Made by a program: the position numbers and the translations under genes
DNA from: Escherichia phage moha
Length of the DNA stretch: 64,000 nt
Sequence record: MN850590.1
Strand: one strand, 5' to 3'
Notes under the pieces: generated by a model
Databases searched by the model: none
What the model was told of the DNA's origin: nothing
The model's input: the letters and a program-made list of their open reading frames with translations, nothing else
Shown: positions 5,520-42,672 of the stretch, piece after piece
Numbering within the stretch: the first letter of the stretch is position 1
Layout of the letters: each line of letters opens with the position of its first letter

Positions 5520-5555
5520 TATACAAACTCTTGAGAGATGAGTATAATTCTCTCG
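5518..5555 (+). promoter_or_regulatory. Early-type promoter with IR around the -10 (copy 1 of a duplicated 30-mer)
   Basis: GTATACAAACTCTTGAGAGATGAGTATAAT; -10 TATAAT at 5543-5548 between GAGAGA/TCTCTC arms. Confidence 0.45.
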
Positions 5556-5585
5556 TTGGATAATAAAATAACCGAGGAAAATAAT

Positions 5586-5918
5586 ATGTCTACTAAAATC
5601 AAAAACGTAGTTAATTCTTTCGCTTTCGATAAAGTTGTTGCTCTTCTGGAATCTGGCAATATTGTTACTCCTCAAGTTCTTGATGCGTGGGAATTCCGTC
5701 TTTATGAAATCATGCAAAAACACGACCAGAAAATTGGACGTAATTCTATTCGTGAAATTCTAGTACAATATATTCTTTCTGAATTTGACGTTGCTGCATT
5801 TGGTGTTGAATCTAAAGCTTATCAGAAACATGAAATCTCTGAAAAGACTATCCGTCGTATGAAAAATCAACGTAAGAAAAAATTCGTTGACCTTAAAATT
5901 GTTAAGGCGGTAAAATGA
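5586..5918 (+). CDS. Hypothetical protein
   Basis: ATG at 5586 with GAGGAAAA RBS downstream of promoter-like element. Confidence 0.5.
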   Translation: MSTKIKNVVNSFAFDKVVALLESGNIVTPQVLDAWEFRLYEIMQKHDQKIGRNSIREILVQYILSEFDVAAFGVESKAYQKHEISEKTIRRMKNQRKKKFVDLKIVKAVK

Positions 5919-6142
5919 GCGTATTAACAGAAACTTTGATTAATGACCTGCATCTAGCTGGTTACGAAGTTGGTACAAATAGTCTAGGTCTTCCTCAGAT
6001 TGAAGGTCCTGGATTTATTCTAGAATACGAATTCAAACAATGGTGGTTATATGCTACGGTTGACGATGCGTTGAATATTGATTTCGTTGACCAATTTGAT
6101 TCGCTGGATGCTGCTCTTGAAGCAGCAAAGGAACTAGAATGA
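5915..6142 (+). CDS. Hypothetical acidic protein
   Basis: 75-aa ORF, overlapping stop/start. Confidence 0.5.
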   Translation: MSVLTETLINDLHLAGYEVGTNSLGLPQIEGPGFILEYEFKQWWLYATVDDALNIDFVDQFDSLDAALEAAKELE

Positions 6143-6408
6143 AATTAACTCGAATCAGTATAACTGAAGAAAAGCTGGGCGAATTTTATGTTGACGAATA
6201 CATGAAAGTCACGTATTTTCCATTCGTTAAAGGTGTTGGTTTTTGGGAAACTCATGTATCTCAATTAAACGAAGGCGACTATAACGAAACACATGAGAAC
6301 TTTTTAGATTTTCTTTATAATGCCGGTCTTACTGAGCTTTATATCGATATCCATGAGTTCAAACGTTTAATGGAAAAAGTGTTTCAGGCTTATTGTTTGC
6401 TCCGATAG
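6139..6408 (+). CDS. Hypothetical protein
   Basis: 89-aa ORF, overlapping stop/start. Confidence 0.5.
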   Translation: MKLTRISITEEKLGEFYVDEYMKVTYFPFVKGVGFWETHVSQLNEGDYNETHENFLDFLYNAGLTELYIDIHEFKRLMEKVFQAYCLLR

Positions 6409-6415
6409 TATCTCG

Positions 6416-6459
6416 TGCTTTAAGATAGGTCTCTAAATATTATGATATAATAGACCTAT
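6416..6459 (+). promoter_or_regulatory. Promoter-like element upstream of gene 55
   Basis: TGCTTTA at 6416-6422, TATAAT at 6446-6451 inside 8-bp IR ATAGGTCT/AGACCTAT. Confidence 0.35.
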
Positions 6460-6480
6460 GAATTGAGCCAAGAGGTACTT

Positions 6481-7038
6481 ATGACTGAACAAAAACCTAA
6501 AAATAACTATGTGAATAATAAAGAGCTTCTCGCCGCTATAATCGAGTGGAAAAAGGAGCTCTTAAATAATAAAGACCCAAACAAAATTATTCGTCAGAAT
6601 GATACCATCGGTTTAGCAATTATGCTTATCGCCGAAGGCCTGTCCAAACGTTTCAACTTTTCAGGATATACCCAGTCTTGGAAGCAGGAGATGATTGCAG
6701 ATGGGATTGAAGCCTCTATTAAGGGACTTCATAATTTCGACGAAACTAAGTACAATAACCCACATGCATACATAACTCGAGCTTGTTTTAATGCTTTTGT
6801 CCAACGTATCAAAAAAGAACGTAAGGAAGTTGCAAAGAAATATAGTTACTTCGTTCATAATGTCTACGACAGTCATGACGATGATATGGTAGCGTTGGTA
6901 GATGAAACGTTTATTCAAGACATCTACGATAAAATGACGCATTATGAAGAATCCGCTTATAAAGCTCCTGGGGCTGAAAAGAAGGAAGTTGTTAGCGATT
7001 CGCCTAGTTTGGATTTTTTATATGAGGATGACAATTGA
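6481..7038 (+). CDS. 55: Late-transcription sigma factor gp55
   Basis: Near-identity to T4 gp55 as I recall it ([58 protein letters not shown]); ATG 6481 with AGAGG RBS. Confidence 0.9.
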
Positions 7039-7237
7039 CATCTCTAACTACTTAGAAGAACCTTTTGACGAAGCAATCCCTTATTTGGTAAAACTGTTGG
7101 GTCGTGAATTTAAAATTAATTTTGACATCGACCCTTTGAACCCACATGACGTGTCATTTTCGATAAACGGGACTCCAGTTGAATATGAGTTCTGTATTGA
7201 AGAGGATGGACGTTTTTATTTTAATTTAATGAGATAA
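7022..7237 (+). CDS. Hypothetical protein
   Basis: Internal ATG overlapping gene 55 stop. Confidence 0.35.
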
Positions 7238-7238
7238 T

Positions 7239-7562
7239 ATGACTACCGAGATTATTGAAAATAAAGAAGCAGAAGATGCAGTAGCTAAAATGCTAAAAGA
7301 AATCCAAAAGAAAAATGAAGCTGAAGCACGTAAAAAATCCGAAAAGATTCTTAAAAAGAATCGTTTTGAACTAAACCGTCTTTATGCTCATGCTCAAGAA
7401 GCAGCAATTCAAAACAACTTCGAAGCTTACGAATATGCTATTAAGAAATCTCGGGATATTCTACGACAACCATACAATGACAAGTTAATTAAAATCCAGT
7501 GGGTTACTACTCGTCAGGCTATTGAGGACATCATTAATGGCGCTAGTTCAAACAAAGTTTAA
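7239..7562 (+). CDS. Hypothetical Lys/Glu-rich protein
   Basis: 107-aa ORF. Confidence 0.5.
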   Translation: MTTEIIENKEAEDAVAKMLKEIQKKNEAEARKKSEKILKKNRFELNRLYAHAQEAAIQNNFEAYEYAIKKSRDILRQPYNDKLIKIQWVTTRQAIEDIINGASSNKV

Positions 7563-7743
7563 ACGTCTGAAGCTGAACGCAGGGTTCACCCTTAAATTGG
7601 GAGGTCCTCTTTGTGTTAAAATTTCTGAAAAGGAATATCACGACGGTTCTATTACAGAAATTTGTCCGCCTATTGTAAAGGCAGACCCAAAACAACTCGT
7701 ATGGGTTGATTCATTTCAAGTTAAGAAATGGTGGAAACGATGA
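7537..7743 (+). CDS. Hypothetical protein
   Basis: Internal ATG in ORF 7522-7743. Confidence 0.3.
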   Translation: MALVQTKFKRLKLNAGFTLKLGGPLCVKISEKEYHDGSITEICPPIVKADPKQLVWVDSFQVKKWWKR

Positions 7744-7782
7744 GAGAAATCGATTTAGGTATTTTCTGAGAGGTGCTTATGC

Positions 7783-7956
7783 ATGACGAACATCCCGACT
7801 TCTGAAAATTTCGATAAAATCCGTAAAGGCAAAGCAGAAAGAATGAGACGTTTTAAAGAGTCTTATGATAAAGCTAAAGCCGAAGGAACTATTACGTACA
7901 AGCCCATTCGATTTAAAAGTTCAAATGAGCCTCTGTACGGTGTACTATGTGGATAG
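7783..7956 (+). CDS. Hypothetical small protein (57 aa, below ORF-track cutoff)
   Basis: ATG 7783 after GAGAGGTG; stop directly followed by strong terminator. Confidence 0.3.
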   Translation: MTNIPTSENFDKIRKGKAERMRRFKESYDKAKAEGTITYKPIRFKSSNEPLYGVLCG

Positions 7957-7981
7957 GAACTCTTCGGAGTTCCTTTTTTGC
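7957..7981 (+). terminator. Intrinsic terminator
   Basis: GGAACTC-TTCG-GAGTTCC followed by TTTTTT. Confidence 0.8.
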
Positions 7982-8025
7982 TTTATAAACGGATGATAGA
8001 ATGAATTAACTAATGAGGAAATAAT

Positions 8026-9045
8026 ATGAAAATTTTGCACTTAGGCGACTTCCATATCGGAGTCAAACAAGACGACCCATGGGTTCAAGATATTCAACGT
8101 GATGGTATTCGACAAGCAATTGAATACTCTAAGAAACACGGGATTAAAACTTGGATTCAGTACGGTGATTGGTTTGACGTCCGTAAAGCAATAACACATC
8201 GTACAATGGAATTCAATCGTGAAATCGTTGATATGATTTCTAAAGCAGGCATTCACGTTCATGTCACGATAGGAAATCATGACATGGCGTTTAAGAATAC
8301 AATAACACCTAACACTGTTTCTGAATTGTTAACTCAATTTGAAAACTTTACTATTTACGAGCATCCAACTACTGTAGATTTTGACGGATGTCTGATTGAT
8401 ATCGTTCCATGGATGTGTGAAGAAAATACAGGTGAAATCTTAGAGCACATCAAGACTTCTTCCGCAGCGTATTGTGTTGGGCACTGGGAACTGAATGGCT
8501 TTTATTTCTATAAAGGAATGAAGTCTCATGGGCTTGAACCTGATTTCTTAAAGACCTATAAACAAGTCTGGTCCGGCCACTTCCACACAATCTCTGAAGC
8601 TGCTAACGTCAAATATATTGGGACACCATGGACACTTACTGCAGGTGATGAGAACGACCCGCGCGGATTCTGGGTATTTGACACTGATGTTGAACGTATG
8701 GAATTTATTCCTAATGAAACAACATGGCATCGACGAATCACTTATCCGTTTAAAGGCAAAATCAATTATTCTGATTATACTAATCTAGCCTTACGTGTTA
8801 TAGTATCAGAAATTGATTCAGAGTTGACTAAGTTTGAATCTGAACTTGAAAAAGTAGTTCACTCTCTTCGCATGGTTTCTAAAGTTGATAACAGTGTTGA
8901 ATCTGATGACGACCAGGAAATCGAGATTAAATCACTTCAAGATATCATTAAAGAATATATTGACGCGATTCCAGATATCTCAGACGAAGACAGAGAAGCG
9001 CTGGTCAAATATTCCAACGAACTTTATATTGAGGCAACACAATGA
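8026..9045 (+). CDS. 47: Recombination nuclease subunit gp47 (Mre11-like)
   Basis: Calcineurin-like phosphoesterase motifs LHLGDFH, GDWFD, GNHD; followed by gp46. Confidence 0.9.
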   Translation: MKILHLGDFHIGVKQDDPWVQDIQRDGIRQAIEYSKKHGIKTWIQYGDWFDVRKAITHRTMEFNREIVDMISKAGIHVHVTIGNHDMAFKNTITPNTVSELLTQFENFTIYEHPTTVDFDGCLIDIVPWMCEENTGEILEHIKTSSAAYCVGHWELNGFYFYKGMKSHGLEPDFLKTYKQVWSGHFHTISEAANVKYIGTPWTLTAGDENDPRGFWVFDTDVERMEFIPNETTWHRRITYPFKGKINYSDYTNLALRVIVSEIDSELTKFESELEKVVHSLRMVSKVDNSVESDDDQEIEIKSLQDIIKEYIDAIPDISDEDREALVKYSNELYIEATQ

Positions 9046-39296: not shown

Positions 39297-39791
39297 ATGA
39301 ATATCAATACTACGGCTACTTACATCCTGAAAGACGAAAAACAAATCAACTGGTACGGTGCTTCAGTGCGAGCTTATGAAAAGTTTTGTGAAATTTTAGG
39401 TGCCACTCAAGGTAATAGTTTCACTATTGTTAACTTCATCAAACAAGCTGAAGGCCCTTGGTTATTCTTAGAAATTAAAAATTCACACGGTACAATTTCT
39501 ACTACCGCCATTCCAAGCACCGACTTTGAACTGTTGATTGAAGAAGTAGAACCTGTTAAAGACATCTGTATTGATACGGATATCGCTTGTATGTACGGTA
39601 CTCTGATTAAGCCTATTGAGCCTACTGATTTGCTGTGTAAATATGTTTCAATTCGACGCCCATTCGCTGGTCCAGTAAATGGATGGGTAACTGATCAGTG
39701 GATTGAAGACGGTGTTGAACTTCTGAACGTTGTTCATGCAGGTGATTTTAGTGTAGTTCCACGTAGTGCTGTGGTTAATATTCTAAATTAA
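39297..39791 (+). CDS. Hypothetical protein, tandem paralog family member A
   Basis: C-terminal block WVTDQWIEDGVELLNVVHAGDFSVVP shared with next two genes. Confidence 0.5.
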   Translation: MNINTTATYILKDEKQINWYGASVRAYEKFCEILGATQGNSFTIVNFIKQAEGPWLFLEIKNSHGTISTTAIPSTDFELLIEEVEPVKDICIDTDIACMYGTLIKPIEPTDLLCKYVSIRRPFAGPVNGWVTDQWIEDGVELLNVVHAGDFSVVPRSAVVNILN

Positions 39792-39793
39792 TG

Positions 39794-39823
39794 TTGTACA
39801 TCCAAGGATGGATGGAGTATAGT
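39794..39823 (+). promoter_or_regulatory. Early-type promoter (copy 2 of duplicated unit)
   Basis: CCAAGGATGGATGGAGTATAGTG nearly identical to 39242-39264. Confidence 0.45.
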
Positions 39824-39851
39824 GAATTCAATTTAAACAAAGAGAGAAATT

Positions 39852-40316
39852 ATGATTACTATTGGTGAAATTAAGCGTGTATCGACAGCGTCTCGTTCTA
39901 AAGCTGCAGGAAAGCTGGTTGAAGTAGTAGGACTTCGTACTAATGGCATGGGCCGTATTAAAGAAGTTAAAGTTCGAATCATTCCTAGTTCTGGAAAAAC
40001 TGAAACTCAGTTCGCCTATGTAAGTCCTAAATTCTTGGAAACTCGTGTAAGTGCCCACTTTGCTTCAAGCGATATCGTTGAGCCTACTACACAGTTCAAA
40101 TGGGCCTTATGTAAAGGTGTTGAATTCCAGACTGATAAAGAATTTGACTTCATCGATGAATACGGTTATCCAAGCAAAACTGATACTATGTGTGGCTTCA
40201 TTAGCGACCAATGGGTTGAAGATGGTAAAAAGCTATACAATATTGTATTCTTAGGTGACTTCCGAGTTGTTGAAGAATCTGAAATCACTCGCTATGTGTC
40301 TCCTCGTAAAGCTTAA
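39852..40316 (+). CDS. Hypothetical protein, tandem paralog family member B
   Basis: ASRSKAAGKLVEV and FISDQWVEDGKKLYNIVFLGDFRVV blocks. Confidence 0.5.
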   Translation: MITIGEIKRVSTASRSKAAGKLVEVVGLRTNGMGRIKEVKVRIIPSSGKTETQFAYVSPKFLETRVSAHFASSDIVEPTTQFKWALCKGVEFQTDKEFDFIDEYGYPSKTDTMCGFISDQWVEDGKKLYNIVFLGDFRVVEESEITRYVSPRKA

Positions 40317-40325
40317 GGAATTATT

Positions 40326-40745
40326 ATGAATATTGTAAATCTCTCTACAGGTGATTACGTACACGTATCGGATGCTTCTCGCTCTAAAGTTGCCGGGAAG
40401 TTGGTTGAAGTTCTTTCTGTGAGTGATCCGGTTTTTGGACGTAACGAAGTTAAAGTTCGTGACGCCGATGGTAACATTGGTTACGTCTCAAGCCAGTTCA
40501 TTGAACCAGAAGAAAAAGCGTTCAAATGGAAACTGTGCAGGTCAGTTTTAGTTGTAAAAGATCATGAATTTACTATTGCTGCCGCAACTGATGGGTCTCC
40601 ATGGACAACGAATCAAGTCGCTGGTTTTATTTCAGACCAATGGGTTGAAGATGGTGTTAAGCTTTATAACATCGTTTTCGCCGGACAGTTCATGGTAGTT
40701 CCTGAATTCCAAATCAAAGGATATAGCCAAGCATCTTTTGCATAA
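40326..40745 (+). CDS. Hypothetical protein, tandem paralog family member C
   Basis: ASRSKVAGKLVEV and FISDQWVEDGVKLYNIVFAGQFMVVP blocks. Confidence 0.5.
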   Translation: MNIVNLSTGDYVHVSDASRSKVAGKLVEVLSVSDPVFGRNEVKVRDADGNIGYVSSQFIEPEEKAFKWKLCRSVLVVKDHEFTIAAATDGSPWTTNQVAGFISDQWVEDGVKLYNIVFAGQFMVVPEFQIKGYSQASFA

Positions 40746-41386: not shown

Positions 41387-41614
41387 ATGAAACGTCAAAT
41401 CATTAAAAACGTAACTACTGATTCAAACATCGATGAGTTTGAAGATGTTCTGTTTAATCCTGATTTAGTTGTTGTACAGAAAAACTGGACTGAATTTTTA
41501 TGCTACACTGAAGTGGTTTACGTTTACGAAAAACTCGGCGATGAAATGCCTATCTATGGTATCTTCCGTGAAATCACTGAAAATGGTACAACTTATTGGA
41601 AGGAAACTTACTAA
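41387..41614 (+). CDS. Hypothetical protein
   Basis: ATG 41387 after AGAGGAG. Confidence 0.45.
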
Positions 41615-42027
41615 TGGCTAATAAATTCCGCGTTAACTCACGGTACCAATTTAAAGATAAACGTGCCCAAGAAGAGTTTATTAAAGACCACACTGATAAT
41701 GGGATTTATGCACGACGTCTTGGCATGGAACCATTTAAAGTATTAGATGTTGACCATCTTGGTCGTCCTACTAAAATTGTGACATCTACCGGCATGGTTG
41801 GATACGCAACAGGCGGTGATATCCTTGATGAAAACTTTATCTGGCTCTCCACGAATGAAGCAGAATTCTTTGACGAAGTTGGAAATCCATATCAAGCGTC
41901 CGAAGAGCAAGATTCTGGTGAACTTGATGAATTGTCTGAATTTCCGGTGATGACGATTACTATCGAAAATAACGACCAGGCATGGTCTTTGTATCAAATG
42001 TTGAAAGCTCACTTTAAGGAACAATAA
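41614..42027 (+). CDS. Hypothetical acidic protein
   Basis: taATG overlap. Confidence 0.45.
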
Positions 42028-42206
42028 TGCCGTTATACGACTATAAATGTCAATCTGAAGATTGTGGTCATGAATATGAAAAAATTAAAAGAATTTCTGA
42101 ACGAGAAAACGATGTTTGCCCTGAATGTCATCGTCTGTCTACTCGTCGGGTTTCTGCTCCTAAACATGTGAACGGTGGTTTTTACGACTTACTTAAGAAG
42201 GGTTAA
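42027..42206 (+). CDS. Small zinc-ribbon protein (FmdB-like, 59 aa)
   Basis: CQSEDCGH...CPECH four-Cys ribbon; below ORF-track cutoff. Confidence 0.4.
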   Translation: MPLYDYKCQSEDCGHEYEKIKRISERENDVCPECHRLSTRRVSAPKHVNGGFYDLLKKG

Positions 42207-42208
42207 TT

Positions 42209-42631
42209 ATGGCTTTTAAAGGTTTTGAAGTTGGTAAGAAATATCGTATTATTAAAGGACAGGAAGATAATTTCTTGAGAATTCTTAATACGACTGGTAA
42301 ACGTCTTAACACTACTCTGCATACAGTTTTATTATCAAGAGATTTTATTGTAGAAGAGATGATTGGTTATGGTGTTTCAATGATTGCCGCTGAAACCGAT
42401 GGACCTGGACGTACAATCATTAGTATGCAAGGTGATATTCTAATTTACGGTGCAGAATTTAAATTCTTTGAAGAAGTTCCTGAATCAGATACAGCCGTAG
42501 ATTTCAAAAAAGGCTCTATAGAATTTGTTGATGGTTCGGTGATCGTATCAGGTGATGTGGTCATTACAGTTAAAAGTGAACAAGGGCGTTTGGCTGCAAT
42601 TGATGCACTTCAGAAAATTAAATTTAAATAA
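42209..42631 (+). CDS. Hypothetical protein
   Basis: 140-aa ORF; terminator follows. Confidence 0.5.
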   Translation: MAFKGFEVGKKYRIIKGQEDNFLRILNTTGKRLNTTLHTVLLSRDFIVEEMIGYGVSMIAAETDGPGRTIISMQGDILIYGAEFKFFEEVPESDTAVDFKKGSIEFVDGSVIVSGDVVITVKSEQGRLAAIDALQKIKFK

Positions 42632-42648
42632 GGGCTTCGGCCCTTTTT
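42632..42648 (+). terminator. Intrinsic terminator
   Basis: GGGC-TTCG-GCCC followed by TTTTT. Confidence 0.7.
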
Positions 42649-42672
42649 GCTTTAGATTTCGGATGATAGAAT
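42648..42672 (+). promoter_or_regulatory. MotA-dependent middle promoter upstream of gene 39
   Basis: TGCTTTA (42648-42654), 12-nt spacer, -10 TAGAAT (42667-42672). Confidence 0.5.

Follow-up and report, generated by a model that had tools for sequence, protein, structure and literature searches.

Gene 39.2 of an RB69-like phage encodes an FmdB-family zinc-ribbon protein with a highly constrained tail, orthologous to T4 NwgI

Here we describe a small gene in Escherichia phage moha (MN850590.1) and the proteins to which its product is related. The stretch of DNA that was analysed, hereafter the window, is 64,000 nucleotides long, and all window coordinates given below are on its plus strand. 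The gene, 39.2, occupies positions 42027–42206, with an ATG at 42027–42029 and a TAA at 42204–42206, and comprises 59 codons and the stop. Its product begins MPLYDYKC8, an N terminus of the MPxYxYxC form in which the domain begins at the initiator methionine, and has cysteines at positions 8, 13, 31 and 34 (Cx4C-N17-CxxC). The coordinates, the length and the four cysteines given in the original prediction, which had been made from the sequence letters, are thus all exact, and its description of the open reading frame (ORF) as tightly packed is borne out by both neighbours. On the 5′ side, the stop codon of goF (TAA, 42025–42027) and the ATG of 39.2 overlap by one base, forming a TAATG stop/start overlap at 42025–42029. 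The annotated-type start of goF (41614–42027), which belongs to the same unit, is the ATG at 41614, although the mechanically delimited ORF begins at a TTG at 41596. A Shine–Dalgarno-like AAGGA (42016–42020) lies 6 nucleotides 5′ of the 39.2 ATG, within the 3′ end of goF, and TTTAAGGAATAAT is kept 5′ of 39.2 in every Tevenvirinae ortholog examined. On the 3′ side, a 140-amino-acid ORF (RB69ORF005c, 42209–42631; match to phrog_622 with E = 4.5e-19) occupies the slot of T4 39.1 and starts after a gap of two bases. Both goF and RB69ORF005c match phrog_622, but a pairwise BLASTP comparison gave E = 0.41 and we claim no paralogy between them.

At 42630–42645, a G+C-rich hairpin closed by a UUCG loop and a T-run behind it resemble a terminator; relatives carry a 'terminator' annotation here, and the unit that contains 39.2 probably ends at this point. 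A match to the MotA-box middle-promoter pattern (42648–42672) then stands before gene 39, at the start of the next unit; in the window as a whole this pattern was matched 14 times, against 3.5 expected. Because the hairpin and the MotA-box match lie just before gene 39, we assign 39.2 to the upstream polycistronic unit. We infer that gp39.2 would be made early, from a motB.2-cef-goF-39.2-ORF005c mRNA, and that its translation would be coupled to that of goF, as the TAATG overlap suggests. A σ70 promoter scan around 39.2 gave 8 candidates where 6.7 were expected, not above chance, and no Rfam RNA family overlaps the ORF. Elsewhere in the window, three consecutive ORFs (motB.1, motB and motB-like; 39297–40745) have a common C-terminal module, DQW[VI]EDG..L.N[IV]V..G.F.VV, which suggests tandem duplication of a motB-type domain.

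The 1.1-kb stretch around 39.2 has a DNA identity of 99.6% with Escherichia phage vB_EcoM_MM02 and of 97.5% with RB69, a phage classified in Mosigvirus (Straboviridae); the window is that of an RB69-like Mosigvirus. Window gp39.2 and RB69 gp39.2 are 100% identical proteins, and identity to T4 gp39.2 (NwgI, 58 amino acids; MT984581) is approximately 83%. Compared with re-sequenced T4, the window protein has 10 substitutions, all of them in the ribbon, and one extra C-terminal lysine. The original RB69 annotation names the ORF gene 39.2, 'similar to T4 AAD42464' (AAP75908.1), and there it sits between goF and RB69ORF005c, upstream of the fused topoisomerase gene 60plus39. T4 gp39.2 is encoded in the same place between goF and gene 39 and agrees with the window protein in zinc-ligand spacing and in the SAPKHVNGGFYDLL tail, whereas the downstream neighbour differs (39.1 in T4, the 140-amino-acid ORF in the window). 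RB69ORF005c is unrelated to T4 39.1, yet it lies in the same slot. Synteny upstream of gene 39, in the early block running from dda-dexA to gene 39, is kept in Moonvirus, Krischvirus, Pseudotevenvirus and Muldoonvirus. The window ORF is gene 39.2 of an RB69-like, T4-type phage and an ortholog of T4 NwgI. Gene 39.2 is already known: its annotation dates back to publication of the RB69 genome, and a function has been published for the T4 ortholog. The earlier remark that it had been missed by a 60-amino-acid cutoff is true of the threshold used in making that prediction only, as public records do annotate the gene (RB69 AAP75908.1).

Spurious antisense ORFs of 76–102 amino acids are present close to 39.2 in this A+T-rich DNA, so ORF length alone is no proof of a gene, and the case for 39.2 rests on conservation. 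A protein homologue search yielded only 8 close relatives and a profile search reached further. With tblastn, 955 phage records match the 39.2 protein, and in 912 of these a single reading frame spans 80% or more of the query. All orthologs whose DNA was read (31/31) are intact and 57–67 amino acids long. Among 20 distinct Tevenvirinae sequences, values of dN/dS (Nei–Gojobori) reach 0.17 at most, around a median of 0.04, synonymous sites are almost saturated, and variable sites fall at codon positions 1, 2 and 3 in the numbers 11, 7 and 39. Gene 39.2 is under strong purifying selection. The check that had been proposed for the original prediction, conservation and codon substitution in related phages, thus identifies a real gene. 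Constraint within the protein is strongest in the C-terminal tail: in the same set, 11 of the 14 codons from 43 to 56 vary in DNA and none changes its amino acid, whereas amino-acid changes occur at 13 of the 42 ribbon codons.

The original prediction had pointed to frameshifts in close relatives as evidence against the gene, and T4 superficially provides one, as RefSeq NC_000866 annotates 39.2 as 45 amino acids only. In an alignment, this record has one extra T (GCT TCC TAA, against GCT CCT AAG elsewhere) and several point differences. The extra T and the point differences are confined to X06220, M89919, AF158101 and NC_000866, whereas the re-sequenced T4 records (HM137666, KJ477684-6, MT984581, OL964735, the OZ records and others) have one different common sequence. 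Two re-sequenced records were translated and encode an intact gp39.2 of 58 amino acids, which undoes the objection; this size agrees with the published one (PMC5153855). Because the truncation is limited to legacy records and absent from re-sequenced T4, the 45-amino-acid form is best explained as a sequencing error of the 1980s–90s lineage, with no sign of decay. Both of the small genes that precede gene 39 are modelled wrongly in the legacy T4 reference (NC_000866, L002 3399-3840; MT984581, L083 461-900): 39.1 is 65 amino acids in NC_000866 and 86 amino acids in re-sequenced T4, where it has a lipoprotein-like signal peptide (MKYINRSIAALVLAVSLIGC). Besides T4, frameshifted entries include the singletons P0005, P0007, P0008, P0064 and P0070, whereas intact gp39.2 protein clusters have 84–101 members. 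In P0007 and P0008 (Shigella phage vB_SsoM_113 and Salmonella phage Manna), the protein runs in the +2 frame from codon 32 (...NVIVCLLVG...; window equivalent 42064–42171). This switch implies a 1-nucleotide indel, with loss of Cys34 and the tail, and may be a sequencing error or a real mutant.

The ribbon was recognized by curated profiles. Residues 1–42 of gp39.2 match PF09723 (Zn_ribbon_8; cut-off 34.4 bits) with a score of 49.3 bits and E = 5e-13; the protein also scores 48.0 bits, against a cut-off of 31.3, with the NCBIfam model TIGR02605 (FmdB family zinc ribbon protein), and matches phrog_1076. The four-cysteine ribbon of the FmdB type that had been read from the letters is thus confirmed above both curated cut-offs. 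The first zinc knuckle, Cys8 to Cys13 (42048–42065), is a Cx4C with a two-residue insertion relative to the family CxxC, an insertion specific to Tevenvirinae. The second, Cys31-x2-Cys34 (42117–42128), follows 17 residues past Cys13, and this gap is the family spacing, as described for the Mycobacterium tuberculosis protein Ruc. Cys8, Cys31 and Cys34 are invariant in an alignment of 94 sequences. In the Krischvirus ECD7 (L087 2501-2674) and Muldoon (L088 2501-2674) orthologs, a histidine occupies the second ligand position (CxxH...CxxC), and the metal site would therefore appear to be kept with a different ligand set.

An AlphaFold2 model based on the same alignment has four β-strands, with a pLDDT of about 85 over residues 1–42 and of 61–68 in the tail (residues 43–59, SAPKHVNGGFYDLLKKG; 42153–42203), which thus combines low pLDDT with strong constraint. 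As modelled, gp39.2 is most likely composed of one zinc ribbon (residues 1–42), with Cys8, Cys13, Cys31 and Cys34 as its putative ligands, and a 17-residue flexible tail with an invariant GGFYDLL. Foldseek comparison of the model with the PDB gave no match at E ≤ 0.001 (best E = 0.27), the top neighbours being assorted small zinc ribbons, all non-significant. Among them, the likeness to YdjO and RbpA (E = 0.27–2) was not used as evidence. By sequence, the solved structures offered just an insignificant likeness to ribosomal protein bL31 (E = 0.3). The GGFYD tail aligns with a K-G-S-G-F/W-Y motif that lies C-terminal to the ribbon in bacterial FmdB proteins, and so is no phage invention.

Other tails occur among the homologs. 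A second phage clade (P0017, P0020, P0027 and others, several named as Klebsiella or Yersinia phages and many nameless) ends in SAPAVHYDGLKSGDY; this ending resembles SAPAVHYKGSGW, the FmdB motif of actinobacteria, more than it does the GGFYD tail of T-even phages. A temperate Serratia prophage (CP074147; L093-L095, about 5550–8060) encodes a 55-amino-acid homolog with a phage-type GGYYD tail; its gene immediately precedes the head genes, flanked on one side by a gene for endonuclease VII and on the other by lambda-type genes for the large terminase, portal and capsid. The neighbourhood of the actinobacterial homolog P0102 contains no chaperone genes.

Folding of the T4 major capsid protein requires GroEL and the phage co-chaperonin gp31, and the phage thus has an obvious reason to tune GroEL. 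The selection of Ang and Georgopoulos (2012, in Genetics) reportedly first recovered 39.2 from RB69, the phage whose gp39.2 is identical to that of the window; the T4, RB43 and RB49 homologs are said to behave alike, and overproduction of 39.2 is said to be lethal. [quoted passage not shown] The reality of the gene, its orthology, its family membership and the constraint on its tail come from the present analysis, and the GroEL effect of window gp39.2 is taken by analogy from what the literature reports for the T4 ortholog. We consider it likely, with good confidence, that window gp39.2 is an early zinc-ribbon protein with a constrained tail that interacts with the chaperonin system and tips GroEL towards a state that accepts co-chaperonin. 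In this mechanism, gp39.2 would act on host GroEL and move it to an open state able to accept GroES or the phage co-chaperonin, and would thereby, on hosts with a sub-optimal chaperonin, aid the folding of proteins that depend on GroEL, the major capsid protein among them. Since Ruc needs its tail for activity, the tail of gp39.2 would, by analogy, be the part that touches chaperone or clients. The genes adjoining 39.2 in the phage are goF, ORF005c and the topoisomerase gene, with no chaperone gene adjacent. The link of 39.2 to GroEL is genetic, not positional, and the sequence alone gives no hint of GroEL.

Becker et al. (2020, PMC7448276) describe Ruc (Rv0991c) of M. tuberculosis as a chaperone under redox control, and a separate paper notes that Rv0991c carries the annotation 'FmdB family'. 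Ruc has a Cys4 ribbon of about 50 residues (C8, C11, C29 and C32; CxxC-N17-CxxC), followed by a disordered tail that spans 7–61 residues across the family and is needed for the activity of Ruc (PMC7448276). The zinc-bound form is inactive, and oxidation or Cys-to-Ser substitution activates the protein, which co-purifies with DnaK (PMC7448276). In several phyla, genes of the ruc type lie next to those of chaperones, groES/groEL among them (PMC7448276), and ruc lies within the HrcA (Hsp60) regulon alongside groES, groEL1 and groEL2 (PMC13091356). We rebuilt residues 1–49 of Ruc from published primers, with five residues left as X; an exact-match search of genome contigs with the primer-derived DNA found no ruc locus. 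The rebuilt segment scores 49.4 bits against PF09723 and 58.4 bits against TIGR02605, and hhalign aligned it with a phage-only profile over 49 columns (probability 97.3%, E = 2.4e-11). On these profile comparisons, Ruc and phage gp39.2 are homologous and belong to one curated family. No paper in the literature searched mentions both NwgI/39.2 and Ruc/Rv0991c, so the link may have gone unrecognized so far; the Ruc paper itself makes no mention of phage, NwgI, FmdB or Pfam (PMC7448276).

Two FmdB-family members with experimental work were found, gp39.2 (GroEL) and Ruc (Hsp60 regulon, DnaK), and both belong to the chaperone network. Tentatively, and with more doubt than conviction, we suggest that gp39.2 is a minimal Ruc-family protein carried by phages, and that the very widespread FmdB family consists as a whole of zinc-switch co-factors of Hsp60/Hsp70, not of regulators. 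If so, the invariant GGFYD tail may be an element that contacts chaperone or client and is gated by the Cys4 site, an analogy drawn from Ruc. According to the Ruc authors, the family is only rarely found in Gammaproteobacteria (PMC7448276), and a search of 5,426 E. coli genomes found no DNA copy of gene 39.2. In the same Ruc-family reading, T4-like phages may bring a factor of this kind into enterobacteria.

A chance ORF or a decaying pseudogene could be argued from the 45-amino-acid annotation in T4 NC_000866 and from the frameshifted singletons (P0005, P0007, P0008, P0064 and P0070). The extra T, however, is limited to the four legacy records, two re-sequenced T4 records encode 58 amino acids, and the frameshifted forms stand alone against intact clusters of 84–101 members. 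The intact orthologs, the dN/dS of 0.04, the synonymous-only variation of the tail and the re-sequenced T4 genomes refute this explanation, and its probability is negligible. The original prediction had favoured another, namely that small zinc ribbons in early regions are often regulators. This stands as far as 39.2 belongs to an early-gene block and its product may loosely be called a modulator; it does not stand in the transcriptional sense, as no DNA-binding domain was detected and the T4 ortholog is reported to act on GroEL. A small regulator of transcription or gene expression, for instance one that binds RNA polymerase or a σ factor, would fit the database label 'FmdB-like transcriptional regulator', the location of 39.2 in a block of early genes that also holds motB, goF and cef, and the presence of the σ-binding zinc ribbons YdjO and RbpA among the non-significant Foldseek neighbours (E = 0.27–2). 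The only domain detected, however, is the zinc ribbon (Ogr_Delta reached 15.9 bits, against a cut-off of 26.3), no fold match reached E ≤ 0.001, and both family members that have been studied experimentally act in protein folding. To our knowledge, the 'regulatory' label of FmdB comes from gene context near the formamidase operon only, and we know of no demonstrated DNA binding. 'FmdB-like transcriptional regulator' is a legacy label, and a regulator of this kind is very improbable.

A reading closer to our own takes gp39.2 as an autonomous holdase like Ruc, with a zinc switch and a tail that binds unfolded clients upon oxidation or zinc loss. The genetic effects on groEL and groES alleles would then be indirect, through a lower client load or client hand-over and not through GroEL allostery. 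Membership of gp39.2 in the curated family of Ruc and the absolute constraint on the phage tail at the protein level agree with such a role, as do the inactivity of zinc-bound Ruc, the constitutive activity of its Cys-to-Ser variants and the requirement for its tail (PMC7448276). However, the discoverers' account reports a conformational shift of GroEL with biochemical and genetic support (PMC5153855), Ruc co-purifies with DnaK and not with GroEL, and the phage tail is 17 residues long with a fixed aromatic motif, against a Ser-rich tail of 61 residues in Ruc. We consider an autonomous holdase unlikely, and retain the reading in which gp39.2 biases GroEL towards a co-chaperonin-accepting state.

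For the window itself the finding matters little. Both the label 'FmdB-like transcriptional regulator', which RefSeq propagates, and the 45-amino-acid model of the T4 reference mislead, and we advise the 58/59-amino-acid form together with a chaperone-related description. The placement of gp39.2 and Ruc in one family provides a testable hypothesis for a very large and otherwise little-studied family, and a hypothesis on how a 59-residue protein might influence an 800-kDa chaperonin.

Among known systems other than T4 and RB69 gp39.2, Ruc is a close comparison. gp39.2 and Ruc both begin with MPxYxYxC, have the N17 spacing and a tail beyond the ribbon, and are functionally connected with the Hsp60/Hsp70 network. 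They differ in the first knuckle, which is CxxC in Ruc and Cx4C in gp39.2, and in the tail, which in Ruc is about 61 residues long, Ser-rich, hydrophilic and disordered, whereas that of gp39.2 has 17 residues with a fixed aromatic/hydrophobic GGFYDLL. The phage tail, with its pLDDT of 61–68, is inside the 7–61-residue range of the family, yet it carries a fixed aromatic motif and is not variable. Ruc is a holdase switched by oxidation or zinc loss that co-purifies with DnaK, whereas gp39.2 is reported to act on GroEL, and the association of ruc-type genes with chaperone genes is absent at the phage 39.2 locus. FmdB of Methylophilus methylotrophus, the namesake of the family, belongs to the same Pfam and NCBIfam family as gp39.2. 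Hsp33, a chaperone with a Cys4-zinc redox switch that the Ruc authors name as a functional analogue (PMC7448276), is unrelated to gp39.2 in sequence and fold, and would be relevant only if a Ruc-like switch applies to gp39.2. Host GroES, gp31 of T4 and CocO of RB49 also act at GroEL. These are heptameric lids of about 12 kDa with a mobile loop and bear no sequence or fold relation to a 59-amino-acid zinc ribbon; gp31 and CocO are nevertheless phage-encoded, like gp39.2, and adapt GroEL for phage folding, as gp39.2 would do.
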